Positions 234 to 18,688 of a stretch of DNA of 20,292 nucleotides are shown in pieces. Below the pieces are notes generated by a model. That model saw only the letters and a list, made by a program, of their open reading frames with translations, made no database searches and was not told the origin of the DNA. The stretch is taken from assembly GCA_039714075.1 (NCBI GenBank), contig JBDLKA010000064.1:1-20292 (forward strand), given 5' to 3'. The translations under genes were made by a program, and so were the position numbers. Every line of letters starts with the position of its first letter. Within the stretch, counting starts at the first letter, position 1. The stretch comes from Candidatus Krumholzibacteriota bacterium (GTDB lineage: Bacteria > Krumholzibacteriota > Krumholzibacteriia > LZORAL124-64-63).

Positions 234-1157
234 ATGCTGCGTCTGATTCTACCGGTCGCGGGAATTCTCCTGTTGAGCCCGGGTATCGCGGCAAGCGGCG
301 TTTCCTTCGTCGATGCTTTCGAGGTTCCCGCTGGCGCCGACTATGTCGGATCCGAGACCTGTCTCGACTGCCACGATGATGTCGGCGAATTCTACGCCAA
401 CTCCCCCCACTCTCCCGAGCGCGGACTTGCCATCCCGGGCACCGGGATTGCCGGCTGCGAGGCTTGCCACGGACCCGGCAGCCTCCATGTGGAAGAGGAG
501 GGTGACGGTTTCATCATCGGACCCGGGATCCTGGCGAGCCAGGACCAGGGCGTCAAGGTTGCCATGTGCACCCAGTGCCATACTGATCAGGGACTGGAAT
601 GGACCGGCGGCCCCCATGCGGGCACGGACATCTCCTGTGCCAATTGCCACACCGATCAGGTCCATTTCGCCGGTGGCGTCACCCCCGTTTCCGATTTCCG
701 GAACAAGGGCGAATTCTGCCTGCAGTGCCACCCGGCCCAGGTCGCGGATTTCCGGCTTCCCTTCCGTCATCGCGTACTCGAGGGCCAGCTCGACTGCCAG
801 GATTGCCACGATCCCCACGCGGATTTCGACCAGACCGCCTGGAACGGCATGAACAGCGTCTGTCTGGAATGTCATGTGGAAATGGAAGGCCCCTTCGTCT
901 ACGAACACGAAGGCGTGGCCAGCGAGGACTGCGTGACCTGCCACCGTCCCCACGGTTCGAATCACGACAAGTTGCTCATCACCGAATCCAACAGCATGTG
1001 CCTGCAGTGCCATTTCGAACAGGGCTTCAATGCCGCCGACGGTTGGACGATGGGTGCAATGGGACACTCGACCCCTCTGAACGCAGAAGCACGTTGCTAC
1101 GACTGTCACACCGAAGTTCACGGATCGAATTCCGATCCGAACTTCAAGGACCAGTAA
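234..1157 (+). CDS. mtrA: DmsE/MtrA-family periplasmic decaheme c-type cytochrome
   Basis: Start moved to ATG 234 (GGAGG RBS, hydrophobic signal peptide MLRLILPVAGILLLSPGIAA). Ten CXXCH motifs (CLDCH, CEACH, CTQCH, CANCH, CLQCH, CQDCH, CLECH, CVTCH, CLQCH, CYDCH) and family-typical YVGSETCxxCH, GPFVYEH, CHxPHGS and CHTEVHGSN motifs. Confidence 0.88.
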   Translation: MLRLILPVAGILLLSPGIAASGVSFVDAFEVPAGADYVGSETCLDCHDDVGEFYANSPHSPERGLAIPGTGIAGCEACHGPGSLHVEEEGDGFIIGPGILASQDQGVKVAMCTQCHTDQGLEWTGGPHAGTDISCANCHTDQVHFAGGVTPVSDFRNKGEFCLQCHPAQVADFRLPFRHRVLEGQLDCQDCHDPHADFDQTAWNGMNSVCLECHVEMEGPFVYEHEGVASEDCVTCHRPHGSNHDKLLITESNSMCLQCHFEQGFNAADGWTMGAMGHSTPLNAEARCYDCHTEVHGSNSDPNFKDQ

Positions 1158-1169
1158 AGGAGTACGACC

Positions 1170-3110
1170 ATGAAGATGAATAGGACGATGACCGTTACGG
1201 TCCTGGGCCTGGCGCTTCTGGCGTACGCCTTGCCGACCCTGGCCGAAGACACCGTGGACCTGCCCGCCCAGGCCCAGCGCATCTGGGCTCCGACGGGTGA
1301 TTTGATCGGACAGAACAACCATGGAACGGCCACCTTCCAGGCCAAGGACCCGCACGGCAACGAAGCCAAGGGGGCCGAGGACTGGCAACTGGTCCAGAAA
1401 TATTCCGGCGAGGGGTTGTTCGGATATTTCCGCACCCGCCAGGACGGCTCCCGATACTGGCTGCGGGCTTCCGGAGACAACGGAGGCACGGGCGGCCCGG
1501 TCGGCAAGATCGACCTGGGCGGCAACATTCCCGGCAAATTGAAGTGGAGCATCGAATACCGGGATTTCGACTACTTCTACGACCGGACCAGCGAGATGCG
1601 GGCGCCGGGCTTCGCCGCTCCCCCGCCTCCGCCGGAACTCGGGATCCTGCCCGAACTCAACTGGCGGCGGGGTTCCCTGCAGGCCGCCTACCGCCTGTCC
1701 GACAAATTCTCGTTGGCCGGCGGCTTCAACCGGAAATGCCGTCATGGTGAAAAGGGGAGCCTTTTGCGGGGCCTGTTCAACTCCGGAGCATCCGTCCCCG
1801 GCAGGAAGCTTTTCGATACCTCGACCAATGAATTCTGGGGCGGGGTCGGCTTCGCCACCGGAAGTTTCGGCTCGGATCTGAACCTGAGCTACCGCAGCAC
1901 CGAAGGGACCCGCGCCCTGGAGGGCCCGCATTACTACTCCGACGACCAGACCCGGTTCGGCGCCAGACTAGGGCTCTCCTATGTCCTGAACGACAGGTTC
2001 AAGCTTGTCGGGCACGGGGCAACCTCCAAACTGGAAAACACCGGTTGGGACAATACGGGACTCAGAACCTACGATCTCAATGGTGAAACAAAAACCAACG
2101 CCGGGCAGATCGGATTGCTGGCCCGGTTGGGGAAATCCGGCAACCTGGCCGCTTCCGCGAATTTCCGAAGTCTGGATACCGACGCCCGGGCCAACCTGGC
2201 GGCGGACATCCAGCAGGCCACTGACCGCAAGCGGGACAGCCAGGATTATCGGGTCTCCTTCAACTACCACGGGCTGGCCAAGACACGACTGCGGCTCGAT
2301 TACCGGTACGGCACCTCCAACCTGGACCAGACCGTGGCCGAGGGAGACGTTCCGGGGGGCGGTCAGGTCGGTGACTACCAGGTGACCAACCAGACCAGGA
2401 CCCGGCAGGACCTGGGCTTGCGCGGCCGTTACCGTTTCGGCTCCGCGATGTCCATCAAGGCCGTGGTCGCGTGGCGGAAGCTGGAGATCGACCAGAAGGA
2501 TCCCACGCTCTCCAACCCGGCCAACCCGTTGACCTTCTGGATGGGCGACCGGAACCAGGACCGTCTGCGCTGGGAGTTGGCCCTGCGCATGCGCCTCGGA
2601 CGGTGGGTCCGTTTCGACATCGGCCACCAGGCCATCGACCAGACCTTCGAGCGCAAGGATTTCGGACTGAGCGAATCCACCTGGAAGGCCAACCGCGGTT
2701 TCACCAACCTGACCTGGACGCCCGGCGGGGGCAGCCTGGACCTCTACGGCATGTTCTCCTACGGGGTGGAGGAATACGCCCTGACCACCGATCCCGTGCC
2801 GACGACGGACATGAACGCGATCGCCTACAACGGGAGCACCATGCGGTTCAGTCCGGGCGCCACGCTCCGCCTGGGTGACAACCTCCGCCTCGAAGGCCAC
2901 TACGAAGGCATCAGGTTCGAGGATACCGGCAACGAAGACGTCATCAGGAAGCTGCAGGCCGACCATGACCGGCTCGCCCTGCGGGCCGGTTATCAGGTCT
3001 CGACCTGGGCCAGGGTGTCCGCTTCCTACACGCGCAATGAATTCGACGAAAACAGGTGGGACGATTACATCCATCACCTGTACGCCGTTTCGGTTTCGAA
3101 AACTTTCTGA
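1170..3110 (+). CDS. mtrB: MtrB/PioB-like outer-membrane beta-barrel (porin partner of the decaheme)
   Basis: AAGGAG RBS; signal peptide ending in TLA-E; 646 aa of alternating amphipathic beta-strand pattern; C-terminal Phe (YAVSVSKTF, BAM-type signal); 12 bp downstream of the decaheme gene. Confidence 0.75.
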   Translation: MKMNRTMTVTVLGLALLAYALPTLAEDTVDLPAQAQRIWAPTGDLIGQNNHGTATFQAKDPHGNEAKGAEDWQLVQKYSGEGLFGYFRTRQDGSRYWLRASGDNGGTGGPVGKIDLGGNIPGKLKWSIEYRDFDYFYDRTSEMRAPGFAAPPPPPELGILPELNWRRGSLQAAYRLSDKFSLAGGFNRKCRHGEKGSLLRGLFNSGASVPGRKLFDTSTNEFWGGVGFATGSFGSDLNLSYRSTEGTRALEGPHYYSDDQTRFGARLGLSYVLNDRFKLVGHGATSKLENTGWDNTGLRTYDLNGETKTNAGQIGLLARLGKSGNLAASANFRSLDTDARANLAADIQQATDRKRDSQDYRVSFNYHGLAKTRLRLDYRYGTSNLDQTVAEGDVPGGGQVGDYQVTNQTRTRQDLGLRGRYRFGSAMSIKAVVAWRKLEIDQKDPTLSNPANPLTFWMGDRNQDRLRWELALRMRLGRWVRFDIGHQAIDQTFERKDFGLSESTWKANRGFTNLTWTPGGGSLDLYGMFSYGVEEYALTTDPVPTTDMNAIAYNGSTMRFSPGATLRLGDNLRLEGHYEGIRFEDTGNEDVIRKLQADHDRLALRAGYQVSTWARVSASYTRNEFDENRWDDYIHHLYAVSVSKTF

Positions 3111-3126
3111 TTGACGATGACCAACC

Positions 3127-3154
3127 GGGGGCCCCGAAGGGGGCCCTCTTTTTT
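3127..3154 (+). terminator. Rho-independent terminator after the porin gene
   Basis: GGGGGCCCC-GAAG-GGGGCCCTC followed by TTTTTT. Confidence 0.85.
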
Positions 3155-3265: not shown

Positions 3266-3283
3266 TCAATGAGGGAAGAGATT

Positions 3284-3931
3284 GTGAACCCCGTTAACGG
3301 CCCCCCGAACCGGCGCCTGCAGATCCTCACCGAGGCCACTCATCTTTTTGCCGCCAAGGGATTCGAGGGTGCGTCCATGCGGACCATCGCCAAAGCCTGC
3401 GGCATCACCGAGGCCGCCATCTACCGCCATTTCACCAGCAAGAACGATCTGTATGAACAGGTCATCACCGCCAAGGCTGTTCAGCACAACATCGCCGGAC
3501 AATTGGAGACCTTCTCCTCCGACTGGAGTATCGAGCAGGTTTTGCGGGCAATCGCCGAACACATCCTGGAGATGGCCAGGCAGGACCCGGAGTTGATGCG
3601 CCTGATGGTCAACAACAGCCTCGAGCGCGGCTCCTCGGTGGCCCGGGTCCTCTTCAAGGAAGTCCGTCTGCCCTACATCACCTATATGTCGGGTGAATTG
3701 ACGAAGCGCATTGCCGCCGGTGAAATCCGCGCCATCGACCCGGTGATCACCAGCCGCTGCTTCGTGGGCATGGTCATGGACTGCGCCCTCAACGTCGGAG
3801 TCTGGAACCGGATCGCGGGCCTGGATATCGCCGCCGACGACGTGGTGTGCAACAACGTTCCCATTTTCGCCCTCGGTCTTTCCAAGGATTTCGGAACCGA
3901 TAACCCCGTTACCCAACCAGGGAGAGCCTGA
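3284..3931 (+). CDS. TetR/AcrR-family transcriptional regulator
   Basis: N-terminal HTH ILTEATHLFAAKGFEGASMRTIAKACGITEAAIYRHFTSKNDL. GTG 3284 after GAGGGAAGAG is preferred as start (ATG 3269 is an alternative). Its stop overlaps the next ATG (TGATG). Confidence 0.9.
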   Translation: MNPVNGPPNRRLQILTEATHLFAAKGFEGASMRTIAKACGITEAAIYRHFTSKNDLYEQVITAKAVQHNIAGQLETFSSDWSIEQVLRAIAEHILEMARQDPELMRLMVNNSLERGSSVARVLFKEVRLPYITYMSGELTKRIAAGEIRAIDPVITSRCFVGMVMDCALNVGVWNRIAGLDIAADDVVCNNVPIFALGLSKDFGTDNPVTQPGRA

Positions 3932-5397
3932 TGAAACGCTTCATCATCCTACCCGTCCTACTCCTCCTGGCGCTTGTCGTCCTGTGGGGATGCGACAACG
4001 ACACGTCCAACGATCCGGTCGATCCCGGAGCCGGTGACATTCCTCCGGAAAAATCCTGTCTGGGCTGCCATTCGAGCGAGGAACTACTGAAGGCGGCTAT
4101 TGGGGATACATCAGGATCAATGGTCCTGCTTCGTGCGAAAGACGGCGGCTGAGGTGGCGAAGTTCCCACGCTGGAAGCGTGGCAAAAAGTCTTCATCGAC
4201 CTGGGGAACAATTATGGCGCGGGTTTCGTCGCCAGTGTCCATGGTCCGAATTACACAGGGCAGGCCATTCCCCACAAGCTTTCCTGCCAAGCCTGTCATG
4301 CGGGACCCGAGGACAACAATTTCAACGGCATGGCCGAGGCCCATGTGGGCATGGTCCCCGACCCCAGCAGGCCGGGCGAGGTAGGATGCAACGCCACCGG
4401 CTGCCACAGTGCCGAACCATTTGCTTCCGCCTGTTCGTCCAGTGACTGCCATCCCACCCATGCGGAGAACTGGACCTCCAGCCTCCACGCCAACCTCCAG
4501 GGCGAGGTCAATGCCGTGGAAGGCCGCTGTGCCATCGACCTGGACCAGTCCGGCTTTCGCCCTTCTTTCAACAACCAGTGCGCCCAGTGCCACGCCACCT
4601 GCGGCCAATGCCACGTTTCACGACCCAACAGCTCCGGCGGCGGATTTGTCTACCTGGAGGGCGCCACGGTTTCCCGTTCGCATCTTTTCCAGAGCAAGCC
4701 CCACATGACCGAACAGTGTACCGCCTGTCATGGCACAAGGATCGCCACGGACTACCTGAAGCAGGGTGATGGGATTCCCGAAACGAATGTCGAGGACATC
4801 CATTGGAGGCTCCTTTCCTTCACCTGCATCGATTGTCACAGCGGCAATGAACTTCACGGTAACGGCCAGGTCCTGGACCATCGCTACGAGGTGGCGGAAA
4901 TGCCCCGTTGCGAAAAGTGCCACAGCAGCCTGGAGCCGGGTAACGACTTCCATGATTTCCACGTGGGAGTGGAGGGCCGCGACCTGCAATGCCAGATATG
5001 CCATTCCCAGCCCTATCGGAATTGTACGGGATGCCACAACACGGTTGACGGAACCGTATACGACGAAGAGTTCAACCTGAAGATCGCCAGGAACGACCCG
5101 ACGGCGTTCCCCTACCGCCAGGACAACCCCTATCGCCCTGACAACAAGGGGTATGACTTCGTGCTGGTCAGGCACGTCCCGGTCGCGCGAAACACGTACG
5201 AACACTGGGGATTGGTCGATATGCCCAACTACACGGGCAAACCGACCTGGTTATACACGTCGCCGCACAACATCGTCAAAAACACTCCCCGGGCCGCCGA
5301 CTGCGGCAGCTGTCACGATTCCGACTTCTACCTGAAGACCAGCGACTTGACGACACCCGACGAGCGGACCGCCAACGCCGGGATCGTCATGGATTGA
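3931..5397 (+). CDS. Multiheme c-type cytochrome lipoprotein with probable selenocysteine (TGA 4150-4152, Sec74); 488 aa, 10 CXXCH plus 2 CX4CH
   Basis: ORFs 3931..4152 and 4330..5397 are in the same frame. The 59 codons between them are open (GGEVPTLEAWQKVFIDLG...SCQACHAG) and contain a heme motif. The only signal peptide/lipobox (LWG-C21) is upstream of the TGA. SECIS-like hairpin at 4166-4182. Confidence 0.8.
4150..4182 (+). other. In-frame UGA plus candidate bacterial SECIS element
   Basis: TGA, 13 nt, then CCACGCT-GGA-AGCGTGG (perfect 7-bp stem, G at the first loop positions, loop about 20 nt after the UGA). Confidence 0.7.
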
Positions 5398-5502
5398 GAA
5401 AGTCGAGAGGTGCGGGCGTTATAACGATGCCCGCCGAAGTAAGAAGGGTGACTCCACCCACCACCCGGACCTTTAACTTTCAGGTCCCTGCAAGGAGAAA
5501 AA

Positions 5503-6546
5503 ATGCACAAGCGACTTACCTGGATGCTTCTCATGCTCATGGCATTGCTGGTCTTCGTCGGTTGTTCGGACGATGACGACCCTGCCGCACCACCGGCGGC
5601 AACCAATTTCGAGACCATAGCTGAAGCAGTCGAAGCCTACCTGCCGGTCGTCGGCACTTCGTACATCAAGGCGGTCGACCTGAACCCCATGGTCAACGCC
5701 GATCCGCCGACCACCGTGGTCTTCGACATCAGGAATGCCGATTATTATGCGTCTGGCCACATCAAGGGCGCGATATCCACAACCCTCGCGGACATCGTTA
5801 CCGCGGTCGAGGCAGAAGGTCTGGCCAAAACCGACCATCTCGTAATCGCCTGTGACACGGGTCAGGTCGCCGGGCACGCGGTATTGGCCCTGCGGTTGCT
5901 AGGTTACGAGAACGCCAAGACCCTAAAGTTCGGCATGAGTTCCTGGAACGATAAAGGCACCGGTCCCAGGTGGACCGAACCCGTCGCCCCGGCGACGACC
6001 TCCGGTTCCTGCAAGGACGACCTGGCGCCGACCAACATCGAAGTCACCGAAAACGCACTCGGTGACGATGACCTCCAGGACTACCCCACCGGGCAGAAAA
6101 CCCTCCGGGACGCCGTGCTGGACATGCTGGCCGCCGGCTTTCAGAAAACAACCATGGGCGACGTCAATTTGGCCGGTAACATGGACACCTACTTCTGGCT
6201 CAATTACGTTCCCATGGACGACTATACCGACCAGGGTGTCACGCCGGGCCACGTGAAAGGCGCCTACCAATTCTCACCCAATGGTTCCAACGACATCGAC
6301 AGGAACCTGAAGATGAAGTACCTGCCCACCGACGGCACGACCATCCTTGTCTACTGCTACACGGGCCAGGGGTCAAGCCAGGCCGTCGCTGCCTTGAATG
6401 TTCTCGGCTACAAGGCCAAGTCGGTTAAATTCGGGTACAACCACCTGTTCTACAACAACGTTGGCTATACCGCCGGCAGCAAGTGGAAAGACACCATGTG
6501 CGGCGACTACCCGCTGTACAACAACGACGGTATCCTTATCCCCTAG
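5503..6546 (+). CDS. Tandem rhodanese-domain (sulfurtransferase-like) lipoprotein
   Basis: AAGGAG RBS; lipobox FVG-C; two rhodanese domains (VFDIRNADYYASGHIKGA...IACDTGQVA...LLGY and GHVKGA...VYCYTGQGS...VLGY), each with an active-site Cys. Confidence 0.88.
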   Translation: MHKRLTWMLLMLMALLVFVGCSDDDDPAAPPAATNFETIAEAVEAYLPVVGTSYIKAVDLNPMVNADPPTTVVFDIRNADYYASGHIKGAISTTLADIVTAVEAEGLAKTDHLVIACDTGQVAGHAVLALRLLGYENAKTLKFGMSSWNDKGTGPRWTEPVAPATTSGSCKDDLAPTNIEVTENALGDDDLQDYPTGQKTLRDAVLDMLAAGFQKTTMGDVNLAGNMDTYFWLNYVPMDDYTDQGVTPGHVKGAYQFSPNGSNDIDRNLKMKYLPTDGTTILVYCYTGQGSSQAVAALNVLGYKAKSVKFGYNHLFYNNVGYTAGSKWKDTMCGDYPLYNNDGILIP

Positions 6547-6615: not shown

Positions 6616-7764
6616 TCAATCATCCGCGGCAACAGCTCCCCTTAGCCGGTCGCATGCTGCCACCAGGGTGGCCCGCGTGCACCCGAAATTGAAACGGACA
6701 TACCCAGGCCCCGCAAAATCCCGCCCGTCCGAAAAACCCAGCCCGTGGTTTTCGAAATGACCGATCGGATCATCAAGGTCCAGGGCGTCCACATCGAGCC
6801 AAGCCAGATAGGTGGCTTCGACCGGAGCCATGGTGACGCCCGGCAAATCTTCCACCTGACCCGCCAGGTAGTCCCGGTTTTCCCGGAGATATTCATTCTG
6901 CGCGGCCAGCCAGTCGCTTCCGTCCCGCCAGGCGGCCAGGGCCGCCACATATCCCAGGACGTTGACCGACGGGACGATGCCGGCCTTGGCCCGGCGAAAA
7001 CGGCGGCGCAGACCGTCATCCGGTATCACGGCCAACGAACAGCTGAGCCCCGCCACGTTGAAGGCCTTGCTCGGCGCCATCAGGGTGATGGTCCGCGCGG
7101 CGATGTCTCGCCCGAGGGCCGCCATGGGCACATGCTTCACGCCCTCGGCCAGGATCAACTGGCTGTGGATCTCGTCGCTGCAGATGACCGTCCGGTTTTC
7201 CAGGCAGGTCTCGGCGACCATTTCCAGTTCCTCGCGGCGCCAGGCCCGACCCACCGGATTGTGGGGATGGCACCACAACAGCACCGAACAGTTGTCGTCC
7301 AGCCCGGCCGCCAGCCTGCGGTGGTCCACGGACCACCCGGCAAGGTTGTCACCGGACAGGGGAATCGTGACCAGTTTGCGGTCCATGAGGGCGGGCGCCT
7401 TCAGGAAGGGCGGGTAGACGGGCGTCAGGACAGCCACTCCGTCACCCGACGTCCCGACGGCACGGCAGGTGACATTGATTCCGCTGACCAGGCCGGGCAG
7501 CCAGACCAGCCAGGCGGGATCAACCTCCCAACCCCATTCGCTTTTACAGGTTTCGACAGTCGTTTCCACCAGTTCCGCCGGTGGGTCACCGTACCCGAAC
7601 ACCCCGTGTTCAACCCGCCGTGCCAAGGCCTCGATCACCGCAGGGGAACAACGGAAATCCGTATCGGCCACCCACAGGGGCAGGATGTCACGGCCGACGT
7701 ACCTGGCCCATTTGTGGCTGTCGGTGCCCGTCCGTTCCACCGGGGTGTCGAAATCGAATTCCAC
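6616..7764 (-). CDS. patB: PatB/MalY-family PLP-dependent cystathionine beta-lyase / cysteine-S-conjugate C-S lyase
   Basis: Motifs FDFDTPVERTGTDSHKW, LPLWVADTDF, HGVFGY, CHPHNPVGR, SDEIH, APSKAFNVAGL (PLP lysine), EATYLAWLD, RFNFGC. Confidence 0.92.
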   Translation of the reverse strand: MEFDFDTPVERTGTDSHKWARYVGRDILPLWVADTDFRCSPAVIEALARRVEHGVFGYGDPPAELVETTVETCKSEWGWEVDPAWLVWLPGLVSGINVTCRAVGTSGDGVAVLTPVYPPFLKAPALMDRKLVTIPLSGDNLAGWSVDHRRLAAGLDDNCSVLLWCHPHNPVGRAWRREELEMVAETCLENRTVICSDEIHSQLILAEGVKHVPMAALGRDIAARTITLMAPSKAFNVAGLSCSLAVIPDDGLRRRFRRAKAGIVPSVNVLGYVAALAAWRDGSDWLAAQNEYLRENRDYLAGQVEDLPGVTMAPVEATYLAWLDVDALDLDDPIGHFENHGLGFSDGRDFAGPGYVRFNFGCTRATLVAACDRLRGAVAADD

Positions 7765-9109: not shown

Positions 9110-10294
9110 CTACTTGCGCCCACCACCCCGCCGCAGCATGGGACCGAATTTACCGTGGACCTGGTCCATGATACGGTCCAGTTTCCGGTCCCGATCCCGG
9201 TCGCGGTCGGGAAACAGCTCCGCCTGCCCCTCGCCCGGCCGCACCAGGTTCGACGCCGTCACCCCGACAAGACGCAGCGACCGGCCCCGGCGCCCCAGCT
9301 TGACGGCCAGCAGACCGCGGGCGGAGTCCCTGATATCCACACTCGAATCACTGGGTTGGAACAGGGTTTCGCTGCGCGTATGGGTCGTGAAATCGGGGTA
9401 GCGGGCCTTGAGAGTCACCGTACGGGCCAGGAATCCGTGGGACCGCAGGCGGCGGGCCACCTTGGCCGCCAAGTGGTCCAGGATGTCCTGCAGATGGTCC
9501 GCGTCGCCGATATCCTCCCGGAACGTGGTCTCGTTGCCGATGGATTTCGCTTCGTGCACCGGGACGACGGGCCGCTCGTCATGGCCGACCGCCAGTTCCA
9601 GAAGGTGGGCGGCGTGGTCGCCGAACTGTTCGACCAGAAGTTCGGGCGGGATGGCCAGCATGTCCCCCACCTTGCGGATGCCGAACCGGTGCATCTGCTT
9701 CTCGGCGACCTTCCCCACACCCCAGAGCTTGCCGATGGGCAGGGACGCCAACAGGTCGCGGGCCCGGTCCGGAGAAATGACGACGAAACCGTCGGGTTTC
9801 TCCAGGTCGCTGGCCAGCTTGGCCAGGAACTTGTTGGCTGCCAGGCCCACCGAGGCGACCAGCCCGACCTCCCGGAGGATCCGCTCCTTGATCGTCCGGC
9901 CTACTTCTTCCGCCGAACCGAACAGGCGGCGGCAGCCGGTCACGTCCAGAAAGGCCTCGTCGATGGACAGGGGTTCGACCAGGGGCGTGTAGTCATCGAA
10001 GATGGCGAAGACCTGCTGGGAGATTTCGGCGTAACGGTCCATGCGGCCGCGCAGAAAAACGCCGTCGGGACACAGCCTGACGGCCCGGGCGGCGCTCATG
10101 GCGCTGTGAACCCCGTACCGGCGGGCTTCGTAACTGGCAGCCGCGACCACGCCCCGTCCTTCGGGAGTTCCTCCCACCATGACGGGTTTGCCCTTCAGGG
10201 AGGGATCATCCAACACCTCGACCGAAGCATAGAACGCGTCCATGTCTATGTGCAGGATGGCCCGGTCCGGAAACATGGAATTGCTGGTCGTCAT
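9110..10294 (-). CDS. dinB: DNA polymerase IV (Y-family)
   Basis: ILHIDMDAFYASVE, RGVVAAASYEARRYGVHSAM, EPLSIDEAFLDV, NKFLAKLASDLEKPDG, LWGVG, KSIGNETTF, LRLVGV. Confidence 0.96.
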   Translation of the reverse strand: MTTSNSMFPDRAILHIDMDAFYASVEVLDDPSLKGKPVMVGGTPEGRGVVAAASYEARRYGVHSAMSAARAVRLCPDGVFLRGRMDRYAEISQQVFAIFDDYTPLVEPLSIDEAFLDVTGCRRLFGSAEEVGRTIKERILREVGLVASVGLAANKFLAKLASDLEKPDGFVVISPDRARDLLASLPIGKLWGVGKVAEKQMHRFGIRKVGDMLAIPPELLVEQFGDHAAHLLELAVGHDERPVVPVHEAKSIGNETTFREDIGDADHLQDILDHLAAKVARRLRSHGFLARTVTLKARYPDFTTHTRSETLFQPSDSSVDIRDSARGLLAVKLGRRGRSLRLVGVTASNLVRPGEGQAELFPDRDRDRDRKLDRIMDQVHGKFGPMLRRGGGRK

Positions 10295-10365
10295 GGCCTT
10301 TCCGGGGGTTGGGTGCTATGGTGGAGCCCGACAGCGATCCGGTCACCTCTTGCGGGGAAGGTAAC

Positions 10366-11163
10366 ATGGATATCCGTCTTTCCGCCATCCACCTCTATCC
10401 GGTCAAAGGCATCCGCGGTGTGTCCGTGGCGGCGGCCCAGGTGGAACGCGCCGGTCTGCGGCACGATCGGCGCTGGATCATCGTTGACGAGCGGGGAAAA
10501 TTCATCAGCCAACGGACCCATCCCCGGTTGGCCCTCATCAGCGGCAATTTCGACGGGGACAGACTTGAATTGGCCGGCCCGGGCCGGGAACCTTTCCAGC
10601 TTAAGGTGCCCGCGGGAAACCACCGTGCCGAGGTAACGGTGTGGAACGACAGGGTCGATGCCGCGGTCGCCGGGCCCCAGGCCGACCGCTGGTTGTCCGC
10701 CTTCCTGGACCAACCCTGCCGTCTGGCCTATCTGGATGACGCCGCGGCCAGGCCCATCACCTCGGCCGCCGGCCGGCCGGCCGAAACCGTGAGTTTTGCC
10801 GACGGTTATCCCTGCCTGCTGACCTCCACCGCTTCGGTGACCGATCTCAACGGCCGCCTGGACGACCCCGTGCCCATGGACCGGTTCCGGCCGAATCTGG
10901 TGGTCACGGGGACCGACGCCTTCGCCGAGGACTCCTGGGCCAAGGTTGCCATCGGGGAGGCCGTCTTCCGTGTCGCGGGTCCCTGCAGCAGGTGCGGGGT
11001 CACCACTGTGGACCAGGCCACGGGGGAACGCGCCTCGGAAGAGCCCCTGCGCACCCTGGCCACCTACCGTCAAACAGCCAAGGGGATCGAATTCGGGATC
11101 AACCTTGTCCCCGAACGGGAAGGGACCATTTCCGTCGGGGACGAGGTCAGGGTGGAGGAATAG
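10366..11163 (+). CDS. MOSC-domain protein (YcbX/mARC-like, N-terminal beta-barrel plus MOSC)
   Basis: Start ATG 10366 after GGGGAAGG; IHLYPVKG, GLRHDRRW, FISQRTHPRLALI, SFADGYP, MDRFRPNLVV, FAEDSW, PCSRC. Confidence 0.92.
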   Translation: MDIRLSAIHLYPVKGIRGVSVAAAQVERAGLRHDRRWIIVDERGKFISQRTHPRLALISGNFDGDRLELAGPGREPFQLKVPAGNHRAEVTVWNDRVDAAVAGPQADRWLSAFLDQPCRLAYLDDAAARPITSAAGRPAETVSFADGYPCLLTSTASVTDLNGRLDDPVPMDRFRPNLVVTGTDAFAEDSWAKVAIGEAVFRVAGPCSRCGVTTVDQATGERASEEPLRTLATYRQTAKGIEFGINLVPEREGTISVGDEVRVEE

Positions 11164-11444
11164 GTGACCGGGGACCGGATTCGTGGTAGTTTCGGGCCAA
11201 ACCAGGATGTATTTCGTCTTTTTTATTCCGATTCAAGGATAGTGTAAGGTGTTGTCATTTTTAATTTTAAACCCATCTGGTGAACCTCATTTTTTTCTGG
11301 ACTTTACCCTGGACCCCACTAACTTTCAATTAGTCTACAAACATCGCAACTATGAAATTACTGGGTGTCACTTGGGTCACCCGACGGCTGGAAAAACAGC
11401 CTGATTCCTGACGGGAACCCGAAACCGCCGAAAGGTGCCCGACG

Positions 11445-11945
11445 ATGAAACGCCTCTTCACCTTCGTATTCATCACGGCCGTCCTGTGGCTCATGTGGCT
11501 GGCCTTCGCCGGCAGCCTGGACCCCCAGGAAATGATCGCCGGCGCGTTGGTCGCGGTCATGGTGACCCTGCTGCGCAGCGGCGGTCCCTGCCTGCTGGGC
11601 GGACCGGAAATTTTGCATCCCCGGCGGGTCCTCTACGCCCTGCTCTACCTGCCGTTCATGGTCTGGTCCATCATCATGGCCAACCTGGACGTCGCCCGGC
11701 GCATTCTCAGCCCCCGGCTGGCCATCAACCCGGGGATCGTCAAGGTCAAGACGCGCCTGCAAAGCCCCGTCGGCCGCATGATTCTGGCCAACAGCATCAC
11801 CCTGACGCCCGGCACCCTGTCCGTGGATATCGCCGGCGACGACATGTACATCCACTGGGTGGATGTGGAATCGCGCGACGCGGAAGCCGCTTCGCAGAAA
11901 ATCGCGGCCGGTTTCGAGAAGTATCTGGAGGTCATCTTTGGTTGA
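11445..11945 (+). CDS. mnhE: Na+/H+ antiporter subunit E (MnhE/MrpE; MbxA-like)
   Basis: IIMANLDVARRILSPRLAINPGIV, LANSITLTPGTLSVDI, YIHW. Confidence 0.93.
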   Translation: MKRLFTFVFITAVLWLMWLAFAGSLDPQEMIAGALVAVMVTLLRSGGPCLLGGPEILHPRRVLYALLYLPFMVWSIIMANLDVARRILSPRLAINPGIVKVKTRLQSPVGRMILANSITLTPGTLSVDIAGDDMYIHWVDVESRDAEAASQKIAAGFEKYLEVIFG

Positions 11946-12198
11946 TCTGATTCTTAAAGCCGCCCTCGTCTTCGCGGGATCCGGAGTGGCCCTGGCCACC
12001 GTCCAGCTCCTGCGTGGACCGGACGCCCCCAACCGGGCCGTGGCCCTCGACGTGCTGACCCTGATCACCATGCCCCTGCTGGTGGGATCGGCCATCTTCA
12101 CGGGCCGGATCATCTATCTCGACGTGGCGCTGGTCTACGCCGTCCTGGCTTTCCTGGGCGTCGTGGCCCTGGCCCGCTACTACGATCGGGGGATCTGA
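11938..12198 (+). CDS. mnhF: Na+/H+ antiporter subunit F (MnhF/MrpF; MbxB-like)
   Basis: TTG start 11938 after GGAGG, overlapping the mnhE stop; LLRGPDAPNRAVALD, YLDVALVYAVLAFLGVVALARY. Confidence 0.9.
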   Translation: MVDLILKAALVFAGSGVALATVQLLRGPDAPNRAVALDVLTLITMPLLVGSAIFTGRIIYLDVALVYAVLAFLGVVALARYYDRGI

Positions 12199-12199
12199 C

Positions 12200-12595
12200 A
12201 TGACCCTGAACGACACGCCCCTGAACCTGATCGGCGCGGTGCTGACCCTGGCCGGCTCGATGTTCCTGTTCCTCGGGGCCCTGGGCATTTTCCGGATGCC
12301 CGACCTCTACAACAGGATGCAGGCCGGCACCAAGGCCACCACCCTGGGCAACATGCTGACCCTGGCGGGCCTGGGTCTGCTGGCCCCCGGCTGGCTGCCC
12401 AAGATCGTGTTGATCATTCTTTTTGTCCTGATCACCAACCCCATCAGCAGCCACGCCCTGGCCCGGGCCGCCCACAAGTCGGGCCTGCCCCTGGCCGCCG
12501 GGTCGGTCCTGGACCAGCTGCGCGAGGACGAGGACGCCGTGGCCGCGCTTGAAGCCGAGGGCCGCGCTTCTTCCGCGACGGAGGTGGACCAATGA
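12200..12595 (+). CDS. mnhG: Na+/H+ antiporter subunit G (MnhG/MrpG; MbxC-like)
   Basis: GALGIFRMPDLYNRMQAGTKATTLG, TNPISSHALARAA. Confidence 0.93.
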   Translation: MTLNDTPLNLIGAVLTLAGSMFLFLGALGIFRMPDLYNRMQAGTKATTLGNMLTLAGLGLLAPGWLPKIVLIILFVLITNPISSHALARAAHKSGLPLAAGSVLDQLREDEDAVAALEAEGRASSATEVDQ

Positions 12596-12831
12596 TCTAT
12601 CTCGACCTTTTGATCTGTCTGGTAACGGTTCTGGCCGCCGTGGGCGCCATGCGCAGCCGCAACCTGGTGTCCGCCGCAGTGATGGTGGGCGCGGTCAGCC
12701 TGATGGTCAGCTACCTGTTTGTGCGCATGAGCGCGCCGGACGTGGCCATGACCGAGGCGGCCATCGGCGCGGGCCTGAGCACCCTGATCTTTTTGATCGC
12801 CATCCGCCGCACCGGGGAGGACGAAGGATGA
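12592..12831 (+). CDS. DUF4040 / MbhD-like small subunit (MrpA C-terminal fragment)
   Basis: APDVAMTEAAIGAGLST motif; three TM helices; ATGA overlaps at both ends. Confidence 0.88.
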   Translation: MIYLDLLICLVTVLAAVGAMRSRNLVSAAVMVGAVSLMVSYLFVRMSAPDVAMTEAAIGAGLSTLIFLIAIRRTGEDEG

Positions 12832-13541
12832 AACAGATTTTTTCCCTGGTCCTGCTGGTGATCATGGGCGTCATGCTCTGGTCCCTGATTCCGCTGGGCC
12901 AGCCGACCGAACCGGGCGAGGTGGCGGAGCACTATATCCGGCACGGCATCGAAGAGAACCGCGGGGCCAACCTGGTGACCAGCGTGATCGTCAACTACCG
13001 GGGTTTCGACACCCTGGGCGAGGTGACGGTCCTGTTCCTGTCGGTTGCCGGCGCGGGCTTCGTCCTGCGTCGCCGTGAGGGCCTGGCGCCGCTGACGGCC
13101 CGCCCCTCGAGCGAGATCCTTCAGACGGGCGCCCGCATGCTGTTCGCGCCCCTGATAGTGTTCGGAGCCTACATCTTCGTCCACGGCCACCTGTCCCCCG
13201 GGGGCGGTTTCCAGGGCGGGGCCGTCGTGGCCTCGGCCGTGATGCTGCTCCTGCTGGCGGACCGCGACCACCGTCTGCCCCACGGCTTCATGTCCTGGCT
13301 GGAATCGGCCGCGGGATTCGGCTACGTGCTGACGGGCCTGGCGGGACTCATGGTGGCGGGCTCGTTCCTGTCCAACCAGGGCGTCCTTCCCCTGGGAACC
13401 TGGAACCGGCTGTTCTCCGGCGGCGTGATCCCCGTCATCTACATCCTGGTCGGCCTGAAGGTCGGCACCGAGCTGAGCGTTCTGCTGGAAACCATGATGA
13501 ACTCGGGCCGACCGGCCGACACCACGGGAGGCGAGCATTGA
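12828..13541 (+). CDS. mnhB: Na+/H+ antiporter subunit B (MnhB; MbhE+MbhF-type fusion)
   Basis: True start ATG 12828 (MKQIFSLV); NLVTSVIVNYRGFDTLGE and HGHLSPGGGFQGG motifs. Confidence 0.9.
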   Translation: MKQIFSLVLLVIMGVMLWSLIPLGQPTEPGEVAEHYIRHGIEENRGANLVTSVIVNYRGFDTLGEVTVLFLSVAGAGFVLRRREGLAPLTARPSSEILQTGARMLFAPLIVFGAYIFVHGHLSPGGGFQGGAVVASAVMLLLLADRDHRLPHGFMSWLESAAGFGYVLTGLAGLMVAGSFLSNQGVLPLGTWNRLFSGGVIPVIYILVGLKVGTELSVLLETMMNSGRPADTTGGEH

Positions 13542-13906
13542 ACACCCTGACTCCCGCCACCCTGTATCTGGCCACGGCCATCGCCCTGATCCTCATCGGG
13601 TTCGCGGGACTTCTGGTCCGCCGCAACATCCTGAAGATGGTCCTGGGTTTCGCCCTGGTCGACACGGGCATCCACCTGCTCATCGCCACGTTGGGCAGCA
13701 ATCCCGGAAAGGCGGCGCCCATCCTGGACTCCGCCGAACTGGCCGCCGATCCCGGCCTGGTCGTCGATCCGGTGCCCCAGGCGCTGGTGCTGACCGCCAT
13801 CGTCATCGGCCTGGGCGTGACCGCCCTGATGCTGGCCTACGTGGTCCGCCTCTTCGCGCTGAAAAAGACCCTGGACGTGAGTGAATTCGGGAGGCTGAAG
13901 TGGTAA
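13538..13906 (+). CDS. mnhC: Na+/H+ antiporter subunit C (MnhC/MrpC, NuoK-like)
   Basis: RRNILKMVLG, DPVPQALVLTAIVIGLGVTA. Confidence 0.93.
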   Translation: MNTLTPATLYLATAIALILIGFAGLLVRRNILKMVLGFALVDTGIHLLIATLGSNPGKAAPILDSAELAADPGLVVDPVPQALVLTAIVIGLGVTALMLAYVVRLFALKKTLDVSEFGRLKW

Positions 13907-16900
13907 ACCCCGTTCTTCTTGTCGCCGTACCGTTGGCCGCGGCCTTTCTGCTGCCTTTGTTCGGCAAGGTCGGCCGCGCGGCCGCCCGGACGGCCCAGGT
14001 CTTGACCATCGTCTTCACGGCCGCCGTTTCGGTGTCCTGGATCGTGGCCTTCGCCTCGGGCGCGGCCCCCGAACCCCTGAACATCCTGACCGGCGGTTAC
14101 GACGGCCCGATAGGCATCAATCTGCACTACGGCCTGCCCGAGGCGATATTCTGCCTGCTGGCTTCGCTGACCACCCTGGCCGGTTCCCTGTACCTGGGCG
14201 CCCGCGAGGACGCCGCCACGGTCGGGCGCAGCGGCCTGCTGCAACTGCTGATCATGGTCGGCGCCTTCGGCCTGATCATGACCCGCGACCTGTTCAACCT
14301 CTTCGTCTTCCTGGAAATCGCCTCCATCGGCACCTATGCCCTGGTCGCCTTCGGCAAAGAGGAAAAGGCCCTCGAGGCCGGTTTCAAGTACATGCTGATC
14401 GGCGCCGCGGCCAGCGCCTTCCTGCTGATCGGCATCGCCTTCCTGTACAAGATGACCGGCACGTTGAACATCGACGACATGGCCGGCAAGATGCCGGCCG
14501 CCGCCACCGCGGGTCTGGCCACGGTCATGCTGTTCCTGCTGGCGGGCATGGCCATCGAATTGAAGCTGCTGCCGGTCAACGGCCCCGCGCTGGACCTCTA
14601 CGACGGCGCCGAACCCGGCGTGATGGCCCTGCTGGTCGGCACCACCGTCAACGGCGTCCTGTTCGCCTTCTGGAAGATGAGCAGCCTTTTCCCCGGCTCC
14701 TGGGACACGGCCATCATGGCCCTGGGCATGATCACCTTCGTGGGCAGCAACCTGCTGGCCACCGGCCAGGACCGCCCCCGGCGGATGCTCGGTTACAGTT
14801 CCAGCGGCCAGATCGGGCTGGTCGTCTTTTTGATTCCCCTGATCCGCCTCGATGTCGTGCCCTTGGCCGCCGCCGGGCTGCTGTTGATCAACCACACCCT
14901 GGCCAAGACCGGCCTGCTCTGGTTGGCCGGATGCATCACCGGTGACGGCCGCAAGGACTGGCTGGGCGCCTTCCGGGGCAGCGTGGCCGGCCGCACGGCC
15001 TTGATCGTCTTCATCCTGGCCATCGTCGGTCTGCCGCCCTTCCCCGGCTTCTGGGGCAAGTGGCAGGCCCTGTCCGGCATGGCGGCAAACGGATTCGGCT
15101 GGTGGATCGTGCCCCTGCTGATCGGCTCGCTCCTGGAATTCGTCTACTACTTCGGCTGGTACCGCCGCGTGCAATCGTCCCGGCCGGACGAGGCCCCCAT
15201 GCCCGGTTCCCTCAGACCTCTGGCCGACCTGGCGGGCGTCGTACCCTTCGCCCTGGGCTCCCTCGTTTTCGGCCTGTGGACCCTGCGCCACCTCGCCGGA
15301 CCCCAGGACCAGGGTTGGCTGTTCCTGGCCGCCGCCGGCGCCGTCCTCATCATCGTGCGGCGCTTGCCCCAGACCATCCTTTCGGCCACGGTCCTGGGAG
15401 CCCTGGCCGTGGCGGGATGGGTATTGTTCACCGCCGGGTCGCTGGTCCCCTCCACGCCGGGCGGCCTTTTCCTGCTGATGGTCATGACCGGCGCCGTGGT
15501 CACCGCGCTGGCCGGACTGGGCCGGATCAACCGTCGGGACAGTTACCAGGGCCTGTTCCTGATCCTGGTCGCTTCACTGGTGATGCTGACCAGGGCCGAG
15601 TCCCTGCTCGCGTTTTTCGTGGCCTGGGAAGTGATGACCTGGGCAAGCTACCTGATCATCGGCTTCGGCCGCAACGGCGCCCGGGCCAGCCAACTCTATA
15701 TCGTCTTTTCCGGCGCCGCGGGCTTCCTGCTGCTCGGTGGCATGATGCTGGCCATCGGGGCCGGCCAGACGACCCTGACGGGTCTGGGATTCCTGACCGG
15801 CGGCGCCGCCGTCTGGGTCTGGGGCCTGCTGGTGGTCGGATTCCTGGTCAAGGCCGCGGCCTGGGGCGCCCACGTCTGGGCACCCGGCGCCTATTCCGAA
15901 TCCCCGGACCTGTTCACCCCGTTCCTGTCGGGCGTGATCAGCAAGATTCCCATGTTCGGCCTGGCCATGGCGGCCTTCCGCATCGGTGCGGGCAACCTGC
16001 CGGCGCTGGGCGCGACCCTGGATGCGACCTGGCTGTTGGCGGTGGTCGGCGGCGTGACCGCTTTCGGCATGACCCTGGTCGGCGTCTTCCAGGAAGACGC
16101 CAAGAAGCTGCTGGCCTACTCCTCGGTCGGCCAGGTGGGCTACATCGTCGTCGGCCTGGCGGTGCTGACGCCCCTGGGCTGGACCGCCGCCCTGTTCCAC
16201 GCCGTGCACCACCTGCTGTTCAAGGGGCTGTTGTTCCTGGCGATCGCCGGCGTGGTCATGCGCACCGGCACCCGCACCATGTACGAGATGGGCGGACTCA
16301 TCAAGAAGATGCCCATGAGCTTCATCTCCGTGCTGATCGGCATCATCGCCCTGTCCGGTGTCCCGCCCCTGGCGGGCTTCACGGGCAAGTGGCTGCTTTA
16401 CCAAGCCCTGCTTGAACGCGGCTGGCTCTTCATCCTGGTCCTGATGATGTTCGCCTCGGTGGTGGCCTTCGTCTACCTGTTCCGGCTGATCCACACCGTC
16501 TTCCTGGGCCAGCTCAAGACCGTCCACCAGACGGTGAAGGAAGCCCCCCTGCCCCTGGCCCTGGCCCAGGTGCTGCTCATCGGCGCCATCATGGCCCTGT
16601 CGGTCTATCCCCAGTTGCTGCTGCAACCGCTGGACACCCTGGTCACCGGCCAGTTCAACGCCGGCGCTTTGACCTTCGCCGAAGGCGGCGCGCTGGTGGC
16701 CGGAGCCGGCCAGTTCAACCCCGTGAACATGATGATCCTGGTGATCGTCCTGTTCGCGGTGATGGTCCTGCTGCTTCTGGTCCTGGGTCCGAAGACCCGC
16801 AAGGTGGGCCAGCTGGACATCGTCTACCAGGGCGAGATCCCGCCGCCGCCCGAAGAGCTGCATTACGCCTCGAGATTCGCCCAGCCCTACCGGCGGGCCT

Positions 16901-17070
16901 GGGAGCCCCTGCTGGTGCCCCGGGTCACGGCTTTCTGGGCCTCGCTGGCCGACAACACCCAGGGCGTCGTCGACGTGCTGCGCCGTGTGTATTCGGGCAA
17001 CGGCCAGACCTATGTCATGTATTCGGTCCTGATGGTGGTCGTTTTCCACCTGCTGGGACTCGGGAGGTAG
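13900..17070 (+). CDS. mnhD: Double proton-translocating antiporter-like subunit (two fused MrpD/NuoN-M-like modules; MbxH+H'-like), 1056 aa
   Basis: Module 1: TRDLFNLFVFLEIAS..ALEAGFKY..RRMLGYSSSGQ..GLPPFPGFWGKW. Module 2: LLAFFVAWEVM..VKAAAWGAHVWAPGAY..KKLLAYSSVGQ..GVPPLAGFTGKW. Confidence 0.88.
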   Translation: MVNPVLLVAVPLAAAFLLPLFGKVGRAAARTAQVLTIVFTAAVSVSWIVAFASGAAPEPLNILTGGYDGPIGINLHYGLPEAIFCLLASLTTLAGSLYLGAREDAATVGRSGLLQLLIMVGAFGLIMTRDLFNLFVFLEIASIGTYALVAFGKEEKALEAGFKYMLIGAAASAFLLIGIAFLYKMTGTLNIDDMAGKMPAAATAGLATVMLFLLAGMAIELKLLPVNGPALDLYDGAEPGVMALLVGTTVNGVLFAFWKMSSLFPGSWDTAIMALGMITFVGSNLLATGQDRPRRMLGYSSSGQIGLVVFLIPLIRLDVVPLAAAGLLLINHTLAKTGLLWLAGCITGDGRKDWLGAFRGSVAGRTALIVFILAIVGLPPFPGFWGKWQALSGMAANGFGWWIVPLLIGSLLEFVYYFGWYRRVQSSRPDEAPMPGSLRPLADLAGVVPFALGSLVFGLWTLRHLAGPQDQGWLFLAAAGAVLIIVRRLPQTILSATVLGALAVAGWVLFTAGSLVPSTPGGLFLLMVMTGAVVTALAGLGRINRRDSYQGLFLILVASLVMLTRAESLLAFFVAWEVMTWASYLIIGFGRNGARASQLYIVFSGAAGFLLLGGMMLAIGAGQTTLTGLGFLTGGAAVWVWGLLVVGFLVKAAAWGAHVWAPGAYSESPDLFTPFLSGVISKIPMFGLAMAAFRIGAGNLPALGATLDATWLLAVVGGVTAFGMTLVGVFQEDAKKLLAYSSVGQVGYIVVGLAVLTPLGWTAALFHAVHHLLFKGLLFLAIAGVVMRTGTRTMYEMGGLIKKMPMSFISVLIGIIALSGVPPLAGFTGKWLLYQALLERGWLFILVLMMFASVVAFVYLFRLIHTVFLGQLKTVHQTVKEAPLPLALAQVLLIGAIMALSVYPQLLLQPLDTLVTGQFNAGALTFAEGGALVAGAGQFNPVNMMILVIVLFAVMVLLLLVLGPKTRKVGQLDIVYQGEIPPPPEELHYASRFAQPYRRAWEPLLVPRVTAFWASLADNTQGVVDVLRRVYSGNGQTYVMYSVLMVVVFHLLGLGR

Positions 17071-17074
17071 AGAA

Positions 17075-17989: not shown

Positions 17990-17998
17990 AGGAGCGTC

Positions 17999-18682
17999 AT
18001 GAAACGGTTCGATCCCGACAAACCCTGGGACCTGACCACCCTTCCGACCACGGCAGGTCCCGACGGTTCGGTGCCCCACGCCCCGGTCGTCAAAAAGGCC
18101 GACGGACAGGACCAGTGTTTCCTGGGCGCGGGCGAGGTGCCTGCCGCCCCCAAGCTTCAGGAAGCGGTCGCCACCATCAAGAACTGGTTCCGCGCGAACA
18201 GCCTGAACGTGCTGGCCTTCGGCACGGGTTGCGGCGCCATCGAATTGCGGCCCCTGATGACCAGCCGCTTCGACATGTCCCGCTTCGGCATCACGGGCGC
18301 GCCCACGCCCCGGATGAGCAACGTGTTCATCATCTCGGGCTACCTGTCCACCAAGACGCTCAAGCGGGTCATCCGCAGCTACGAGCAGATGCCCAACCCC
18401 AAGTGGGTGGTGGCCCTGGGTTCGTGCACCATCAACGGGGGCATGTACTGGGACTCGTACAACACCATCAAGGTTCTGGATCTCTACATGCCGGTGGATG
18501 TCTACATCTCCGGCTGCATGCCGCGGCCCGAGGCGCTGATCGCCGGGTTCCAGTACCTGATGACCGAGATCAAGGCCGGCGACGCCAACGGCTGGCACCA
18601 TTATCTGGAGAACCTCGACTGGTACCGGGAAAACCAGAAGCAGGTCATCAAGGACTGGGATCTTCCCGACTACAGCTGGTAG
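17999..18682 (+). CDS. nuoB: NuoB-family Fe-S subunit of MbxJ/MbsJ type
   Basis: AFGTGCGAIELRPLMTSRFD, KTLKRVIRSYEQMPNPKWV, GSCTINGGMYWDSY, PVDVYISGCMPRPEA, GWHHYLENLDWYRENQ; lacks the CC pair of complex I NuoB. Confidence 0.9.
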   Translation: MKRFDPDKPWDLTTLPTTAGPDGSVPHAPVVKKADGQDQCFLGAGEVPAAPKLQEAVATIKNWFRANSLNVLAFGTGCGAIELRPLMTSRFDMSRFGITGAPTPRMSNVFIISGYLSTKTLKRVIRSYEQMPNPKWVVALGSCTINGGMYWDSYNTIKVLDLYMPVDVYISGCMPRPEALIAGFQYLMTEIKAGDANGWHHYLENLDWYRENQKQVIKDWDLPDYSW

Positions 18683-18688
18683 GTTGTG

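Follow-up and report, generated by a model that had tools for sequence, protein, structure and literature searches.

We analysed a window of 20,292 nt (by the window we mean the whole of that stretch of DNA) from a draft genome of a Krumholzibacteriota bacterium; the genome consists of 260 contigs and is 92% complete with 4.3% contamination. Our subject is the segment at positions 3931-5397 of the window. Its sequence makes it very probable that the segment is one gene, that an in-frame UGA within it is read as selenocysteine (Sec), and that the product is exported, lipidated at Cys21 and furnished with up to 12 c-type haems; we found no description of its family. The gene and its own features, among them a hairpin like the selenocysteine insertion sequence (SECIS), are these:

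3931..5397, forward strand: predicted selenoprotein gene for a lipoprotein cytochrome of 488 amino acids (aa) with 12 haem motifs, 50.9 kDa as the apo-protein after signal cleavage (read-through translation and homologues)
3920..3926, forward strand: Shine-Dalgarno-like GGGAGAG, 4 nt ahead of ATG 3931 (read from the sequence)
3931..3993, forward strand: signal peptide and lipobox LWGC, with the Cys21 codon at 3991-3993 (translation; Cys21 is kept in 28 of the 30 homologues that cover that position)
4057..4071, forward strand: haem motif 1, C43-L-G-C-H47, 5' of the Sec codon (translation; kept in 28 of 30 homologues)
4150..4152, forward strand: UGA, predicted to be read as selenocysteine, U74 (conservation and Cys homologues)
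4166..4182, forward strand: SECIS-like hairpin, with CCACGC at 4166-4171, the loop UGGAA at 4172-4176 and GCGUGG at 4177-4182

The first open reading frame (ORF) of this frame in the ORF list occupies positions 3931-4152, encodes 73 aa and is closed by the TGA at 4150-4152. When that TGA is translated as U the frame is continuous from ATG 3931 to the stop TGA at 5395-5397, giving 488 aa, and no further stop or frameshift interrupts the 488 codons. A sequence-only reading of the window had proposed that the short ORF and the open frame beyond it, which runs to 5397, together encode a lipoprotein of 488 aa with about 12 haems, and the read-through translation confirms the frame, the length, the lipobox and the number of motifs. 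The joined protein opens with MKRFIILPVLLLLALVVLWGC, which bears the lipobox, and at the Sec site it reads ...LRAKDGG-U-GGEVPTLEAWQK... The lipobox pattern is [LVI][ASTVI][GAS]C; the segment LVVLWGC, with Cys21, places the product among the predicted lipoproteins, and both its lipidation and its location are predictions. The haem motifs comprise ten CXXCH and two CX4CH. One CXXCH (C43-H47) lies upstream of the TGA while nine CXXCH and both CX4CH lie downstream, exactly as the sequence-only reading had counted them.

The public annotation favours a different arrangement, in which the UGA terminates and the segment holds two genes, one for a 73-aa monohaem lipoprotein and one for a separately initiated cytochrome. 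The contig's own public record contains a 355-aa form (P0002) that starts at ATG 4330, and separate entries exist for upstream ORFs of 68-78 aa, one of 68 aa ending ...RAKGGG. ATG 4330 is the earliest in-frame ATG, GTG or TTG past the TGA, and the same-frame ORF that it opens, 4330-5397, does encode 355 aa. No GGAGG-like run was seen in the sequence upstream of it, however. Before 4330 the frame past the TGA offers neither a start codon nor a ribosome-binding site, and it lacks a signal peptide, whereas attachment of c-type haem needs export. Initiation at ATG 4330 would also cost the protein a haem, as had been claimed: H104 and the haem-2 motif C119-H123 would be lost, of which the first is present in 116 of 118 aligned homologues and the second in 123 of 123. 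The residues between the TGA and position 4330 are conserved in frame in all relatives, and the annotated starts vary among homologues (78, 81, 86, 87 and 98-141). We therefore consider the existence of two genes highly improbable. Among 107 partial public homologues the starts align to residue 78 (52 proteins), 81 (19), 86-87 (12) or positions further downstream (22), the remaining two having other N-termini. Thus 83 of the 107 begin 4-13 residues past the Sec site, in agreement with the prediction that standard gene callers would miss the joined gene.

The in-frame TGA is conserved. When 41 related genomes were searched in six frames, 16 of them proved to have the gene, and all 15 matches that span the site have exactly one in-frame TGA, at identities ranging from 87% to 42%; the other three rows of that scan are C-terminal fragments. 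In a scan of 208 genomes of the phylum the gene was found in 71 and the TGA in 69 of these, the two exceptions having TGG (Trp, ...KGDA-W-VGEVPPLEAW) and CAA (Gln, ...GSG-Q-AGDLPPLEPW). The TGA is also present in metagenome-assembled genomes (MAGs) titled Deltaproteobacteria (placed in Myxococcota by our tree), Thermodesulfobacteriota and Fibrobacteraceae. Protein-level conservation flanks the codon on both sides in all relatives examined, with the motif K-x-DG-U-GG-[DES]-VP-x-LEAW-[EQ]-KV kept on each side of it, and every related locus that we translated has a signal peptide, a lipobox and a first haem motif 5' of the TGA. DG-U-GG is present in most relatives and is the most conserved local motif in the N-terminal part. 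In the sequence-only reading Sec74 sat in a flexible GG-U-GG linker; the Sec residue survives our analysis but the loose linker does not, as DG-U-GG is a highly conserved motif.

The same counts bear on the suspicion that the TGA is an error of sequencing or assembly, or that the gene is a decaying pseudogene, to which the draft state and the contamination of the genome lend some substance. An independent contig from a public run, with a depth of 17.3, spans positions 3900-5400 and has two differences, none of them at 4150-4152, although this contig possibly comes from the source sample. Within the phylum the TGA recurs in 69 genomes whose assemblies are independent, other phyla have it too, and the remainder of the 488-codon frame is intact. 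The likelihood of error or decay is, in our judgement, negligible. Genome-wide reassignment of TGA was considered too and rejected: TGA closes six of the 11 genes in the window as their ordinary stop, and therefore the code is not reassigned. As a separate observation, one copy of the gene in another genome (G195:C17:85337-86614) was recovered as three matches, one of them with a TAA as well as a TGA, a sign that the copy has probably been disrupted or has lost its frame.

The database has 30 homologues in which a sense codon occupies the site. Cys is their commonest residue (12 proteins, 11 of them with C-G-G), followed by P, W and A (3 each), M (2), Y, G, H, V, Q and L (1 each) and a gap (1); no residue other than Cys exceeds 3, and the non-Cys forms mostly lack the GG. 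This full-length set is biased because Sec forms are annotated as truncated proteins. The sequence-only reading had looked to homologues both for support, in the form of a conserved TGA or a Cys codon with conservation on either side, and for refutation, in the form of varied non-Cys residues. The support was found, in the 69 of 71 phylum genomes with TGA and the 12 of 30 sense-codon homologues with Cys. The contrary result was found in part: 18 of the 30 are non-Cys in a biased set, as against the kept TGA and the position of Cys as the commonest residue. On balance this check, like those on the Sec genes and on the sequenced codon, favoured the Sec reading. In a quick tree with a midpoint root, which lacks the Sec forms of distant branches because the database has them only in truncated form, the Sec-less variants P0007, P0008, P0013, P0018 and P0020 (Q, W, P, P and gap) make up one subclade nested inside the Sec clade. 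The MAG copies from Myxococcota (L041 and L042, labelled Deltaproteobacteria) and Fibrobacteraceae (L047) nest in the same tree among the copies from Krumholzibacteriia; horizontal movement between phyla of the gene, together with the rhodanese gene that adjoins it, is suggested.

The hairpin 12 nt 3' of the UGA, with the form CCCGNGC-UGGAA-GCNUGGG, is present in 21 of 21 aligned sequences (20 of them distinct). Its stem has 7 bp in relatives and six pairs in this gene (4166-4171 with 4177-4182). The hairpin positions pair in 92.1% of cells, compared with 13.6-45.7% when the 3' partner is slid, and none of 500 shuffles scored as high as the real alignment in either pairing or covariation. A compensatory change is seen at pair 20-30, where 11 sequences have C-G and eight have A-U; since one partner is base two of a codon that varies (Ala/Thr/Pro to Glu) and the other is the third, synonymous base of the Ala codon in LEAW, the change goes beyond what conservation of the peptide explains. 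The bacterial SECIS consensus, as given in the excerpted text of PMC13188914, has a distance of 16-37 nt from the UGA to the loop and a G in the first two loop positions. The loop UGGAA starts 19 nt past the UGA and has G in its second position followed by another G, and it fits this consensus as excerpted. In the two phylum copies that lack Sec, read at the DNA level (Trp in G164; Gln in G127, which encodes P0007), hairpin pairing and the GG flanks have been lost while LEAW or LEPW is retained.

The sequence-only reading had called for the Sec genes to be sought, and selA, selB, selC and selD are all in the genome. There is a tRNA-SeC with anticodon TCA (68.5 bits), and selB (327.8 bits), selA (448.1 bits) and selD (363.8 bits) all score above their curated cut-offs. 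We propose that the UGA at 4150-4152 would be decoded by SelB and tRNA-Sec under the direction of the intragenic hairpin at 4166-4182. Readthrough of the UGA without selenocysteine, for example by near-cognate Trp, would also make a full-length product, in which position 74 is an ordinary residue, and Trp is tolerated at the site (TGG in G164; W in P0008, P0256 and P0270). Against this stand the covariation of a hairpin with the position and loop of a SECIS, the occurrence of Cys as the commonest sense residue in the same C-G-G context, the completeness of the Sec machinery, and the retention of TGA instead of TGG in 69 of 71 genomes, which would be pointless if the product were Trp. Such readthrough is very unlikely, and we are highly confident, from all these lines of sequence evidence, that U74 is selenocysteine. 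A selD homologue (L018; contig C31:20863-21777) itself has one in-frame TGA, and to judge from its sequence the genome's SelD is probably a selenoprotein.

Pfam finds in the joined protein only a generic cytochrome c7 stretch, and NCBIfam release 20 assigns it to no family, with only a 20-bit touch on ExtM. In an alignment of 135 sequences the core haem motifs number eleven; haem 3 (C153-H159; 4387-4407) occurs in 47 of the 135 homologues and is a clade-specific insertion. Motifs 3 and 4 are CX4CH in this gene and CXXCH in its relatives. Ten His residues outside the motifs are invariant or nearly so (104, 138, 186, 251, 291, 309, 341, 344, 415 and 446). The AlphaFold model has a predicted local distance difference test score (pLDDT) of 86.8 and a predicted template-modelling score (pTM) of 0.81, and is weak in the lipid-anchor linker (20-33) and at residues 64-69. 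Its best structural match is 1sp3_A (Z 8.2, root-mean-square deviation 4.2 A for 264 residues over model positions 101-488, 17% identity), while the next matches (MtrA, hydroxylamine oxidoreductases, OcwA and octahaem nitrite reductase) have Z values of 4.0 or below. A PDB sequence search with the joined protein gave nothing under E 0.3. The protein consists of an N-terminal module, made up of haem 1 and the DG-U-GG loop, before an 11-haem body (10 haems in most homologues, which are without haem 3). As modelled, the body appears to have an octahaem tetrathionate reductase-like fold, a matter of resemblance and not of membership.

The structure 1sp3 is the octahaem tetrathionate reductase of Shewanella oneidensis (TIGR04315), a sulfur-compound reductase. 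The joined protein has no TIGR04315 match at E <= 0.01 and differs from 1sp3 in having 11-12 haems against eight, an extra N-terminal module (haem 1 and Sec) and a lipid anchor. The excerpts of PMC13188914 list a GenBank-annotated selenoprotein in TIGR04315.

A precedent for Sec in a multihaem cytochrome is MccSep, or ExtKL, of Geobacter sulfurreducens (GSU2937-2936; NF040886). It is a polysulfide reductase with five haems and the sole characterised multihaem selenoprotein; its D-G-U-P loop carries U325, which attacks polysulfide or selenite beside a His/Cys haem (PMC13510729). Like our gene, it encodes a multihaem c-type cytochrome, has an in-frame UGA that splits its annotation into two ORFs, and has a SECIS-like hairpin directly 3' of the UGA. 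The Sec contexts are alike, with D323-G324-U325 in MccSep and DG-U-GG in most relatives of this gene; in both clusters a porin gene lies alongside (ExtI in Geobacter, according to the excerpted text of PMC5877670), and both systems are probably chalcogen-directed. The differences are equally plain. There are 12 haem motifs here (11 in the family core) and five in MccSep; Sec is near the N-terminus, before haem 2, and not in a C-terminal Ig-like domain as is U325; and the product is a predicted lipoprotein whereas MccSep is a soluble periplasmic tetramer. MccSep also has a haem-ligating C239, while this family has no conserved free Cys equivalent. The joined protein has no NF040886 match at E <= 0.01, and its own genome has no NF040886 member above the 250-bit cut-off, the scores at other loci being 27.3 and 24.8 bits. 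Identity with ExtKL/MccSep was rejected on account of the missing NF040886 match, the 12 haems as against five, the N-terminal Sec and the lipoprotein character, and the contention that the layout is unlike ExtKL is upheld. Data S1 of PMC13510729 lists five-haem MccSep homologues from Krumholzibacteriota, and those proteins differ from the present family.

The genes and sites around the Sec gene that belong to the same cluster are these:

234..1157, forward strand: periplasmic decahaem c-type cytochrome of the DmsE/MtrA family; its ORF is listed from TTG 162, and the likely start is ATG 234, before the signal peptide
1170..3110, forward strand: outer-membrane beta-barrel (porin) of 646 aa, with a signal peptide, no CXXCH and one Cys (Pfam OMP_b-brl, 32.5 against a cut-off of 28.7 bits)
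3127..3148, forward strand: terminator-like GC hairpin followed by TTTTTT, 3' of the porin gene (from a consensus scan that used the consensus only and found 5 sites where 6.9 are expected by chance)
3269..3931, forward strand: TetR-family regulator, whose stop TGA at 3929-3931 overlaps ATG 3931 by one base (Pfam TetR_N, E 3.3e-17)
5503..6546, forward strand: two-domain rhodanese lipoprotein with the lipobox VFVGC followed by SDDDD (Pfam Rhodanese, E 6.3e-22)

The decahaem cytochrome scores 196.7 bits with TIGR03508 (cut-off 192.2), has the Pfam domain Paired_CXXCH_1 and contains ten CXXCH motifs. The order of genes is conserved: decahaem cytochrome, porin, TetR, Sec gene and rhodanese. We compared 21 distinct related loci (23 were fetched, and two pairs proved to be the same contigs). 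The rhodanese gene is directly 3' of the Sec gene in 19 of them, one locus ending at the site and L044 having none; the TetR gene is directly 5' in 18; the barrel was detected upstream in 14; and the decahaem cytochrome was detected in three distinct loci, those with enough flank (five rows, two of them doubly fetched). The two catalytic Cys of the rhodanese (Cys117 and Cys285) and its lipobox Cys are invariant in 76 homologues, with a post-lipobox consensus of CSDDD. In L041, L042, L043 and L045 the rhodanese lipoprotein has 618-635 aa and doubled (four) domains, or a second rhodanese gene comes next. We take ExtH of the Geobacter cluster to be a rhodanese lipoprotein as well.

Since a DmsE/MtrA-family decahaem cytochrome adjoins an outer-membrane beta-barrel, the cluster qualifies as a porin-cytochrome conduit. 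It resembles the MtrCAB and DmsEF conduits in the decahaem cytochrome, in the 646-aa barrel and in having a multihaem lipoprotein nearby, and it differs from them in the presence of Sec, in the rhodanese partner and in that the lipoprotein gene would be transcribed with TetR past the terminator-like site. Neither Pfam nor NCBIfam gave an MtrC or OmcA family match to the lipoprotein cytochrome, and the barrel has no MtrB/PioB family match.

Several side observations concern these genes and their flanks. Acidic residues follow the lipobox Cys in both lipoproteins, as C-[DE]-NDTSN in the cytochrome (3994-4014) and C-SDDD(D) in the rhodanese (5566-5580), and are kept across phyla; they resemble the acidic surface-export signal of Bacteroidota lipoproteins and may have the same function. 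Truncated homologues of the cytochrome (P0006, P0009, P0018, P0035, P0049, P0062 and others) bear the JGI label 'thiosulfate/3-mercaptopyruvate sulfurtransferase', and their Pfam domains are those of a cytochrome only. The label was probably carried over from the adjoining rhodanese, or from a fused form that we did not find; a search for cytochrome-rhodanese or longer fusions gave none at E <= 1e-20, which is weak evidence. The cluster is flanked by genes for a class I/II aminotransferase (6616-7764, reverse strand), which is syntenic in close relatives, a DinB/IMS-family polymerase (9110-10294, reverse strand) and a MOSC-domain protein (10309-11163, forward strand). Positions 11358-20292 encode an Mrp/Mbh-type membrane complex, with forward-strand genes at 12549-13541, 13900-17070 and 19036-20292. 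Its parts include MnhB/MbhE domains, a 1056-aa Proton_antipo_M subunit and a Complex1_49kDa product (like NuoD or the large subunit of [NiFe]-hydrogenase) whose gene leaves the window. To go by these domains, a group-4 hydrogenase is one possibility and a sulfane-reducing complex like MBX/MBS another, and the complex lies close to a sulfur-linked cytochrome cluster.

By analogy with known systems, there is about an even chance that the Sec lipoprotein forms the terminal, chalcogen-reactive part of a conduit that carries electrons across the outer membrane. The DmsE-type decahaem cytochrome would supply the electrons, which would reach the Sec lipoprotein by way of the porin. There the selenolate of U74, in its flexible Gly-flanked loop, would attack S-S (or Se/Te) bonds, the candidate substrates being polysulfide, S0-derived sulfane, tetrathionate and selenite. 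Reduction of the selenolate adduct would fall to the haem chain. This mechanism is modelled on the attack of U325 of MccSep on polysulfide or selenite. The lipoprotein rhodanese may carry or deliver sulfane sulfur, and TetR, being translationally coupled, may regulate the unit.

The same selenoprotein might, in the manner of MtrC or OmcA, do no more than pass electrons outside the cell to minerals or to partner cells. Sec would then have a redox or structural function, or act as a checkpoint that ties translation to selenium, and would not be a nucleophile that attacks chalcogens. The porin-cytochrome layout, with its DmsE-family decahaem cytochrome, beta-barrel and multihaem lipoprotein, is in keeping with such a role, and so is the loss of Sec in some lineages that have no Cys in its place. 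The mature apo-protein of 50.9 kDa amounts to 4.24 kDa per haem, a value that falls in the 'peptide-minimized' class that the excerpts of PMC7096707 tie to electron transfer rather than catalysis. Set against this are the constant neighbour, in 19 of 21 loci, a rhodanese lipoprotein with invariant catalytic Cys; a fold like that of a catalytic sulfur-compound reductase; the placing of costly Sec in a strictly conserved DG-U-GG, as is typical of catalytic sites; and the fact that the sole characterised multihaem selenoprotein is a polysulfide reductase. We regard simple electron transfer as unlikely.

A more specific version of the chalcogen-directed role may be put forward as speculation. The core haems number eleven and the conserved distal His residues ten; together with the want of a conserved Cys partner, this means that Sec may act at or on a haem directly. 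Under the most specific form of this idea, which we consider a long shot, U74 would be the sixth ligand of the core haem that has no conserved distal His, or would lie directly over it, and the lipoprotein would be exposed on the cell surface with the rhodanese as an extracellular, selenium-dependent terminal reductase of insoluble sulfur (or Se/Te) supplied through the conduit. If this is true, the protein contains a natural selenolate-haem catalytic centre and belongs to a respiratory module distinct from both periplasmic MccSep and the molybdenum polysulfide reductases.

Taking identity and function together, we hold with considerable confidence that a selenocysteine-containing, lipid-anchored multihaem cytochrome with a chalcogen-directed role is the best explanation of the segment 3931-5397, the role being much the less certain part. 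A number of our results weigh against it, beginning with the value of 4.24 kDa per haem. The residue at the Sec site is dispensable in some lineages, because 18 of the 30 sense-codon homologues have neither Cys nor Sec. C200, the sole free Cys besides that of the lipobox, is kept in 22% of homologues, and there is no conserved non-haem Cys partner, unlike Cys239 in MccSep. The U74 loop is modelled at low confidence (pLDDT 51-69), the block that contains U74 averaging 69; a Z of 8.2 is at a level that the search tool calls common among best matches; and Foldseek found no match in the PDB at E <= 0.001, its top row being 1sp3 at E 0.042. As for the hairpin, the 66-nt stretch 3' of the UGA, folded in isolation, shows no exceptional stability (z -0.89; 36 of 200 shuffles do equally well), two-sided change is seen in only one of the 7 stem pairs, and conservation of the hairpin is in part a protein constraint because it sits inside a conserved peptide. 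Rfam gave no match either at gathering thresholds over the whole window or at E <= 10 over 4100-4300, a result that says little, few bacterial SECIS models being in existence. Finally, the Sec gene is known here from DNA sequence alone.

An exhaustive profile-free search, clustered at 50% identity, returned 337 clusters at E <= 0.001, 183 at 1e-10 and 83 at 1e-30, and the names on the matches include Krumholzibacteria, KSB1, Eisenbacteria, Chloroflexota/Anaerolineae and a Thioalkalivibrio MAG. Uncultured Krumholzibacteriota have the family, as do MAGs labelled Fibrobacteraceae, Deltaproteobacteria (those placed in Myxococcota), Thermodesulfobacteriota, Chloroflexota and KSB1. Our literature search found no description of it, although a groundwater survey (Deng et al.), cited in the excerpted text of PMC13188914, may list it.

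If our reading is true, this is the second family of multihaem cytochrome selenoenzymes, architecturally unrelated to MccSep (2026), and a second test case for cooperation between Sec and haem. Annotation nearly always renders a member as two pieces, a shortened cytochrome that lacks a signal and an orphan mini-ORF, and for this reason surveys of selenoproteomes and of extracellular electron transfer miss the family. The family would link the use of selenium to an outer-membrane electron conduit and to a sulfur-carrier protein. That link, with the spread of the family across lineages, makes the family a candidate, open to test, for how these lineages might respire sulfur or selenium.

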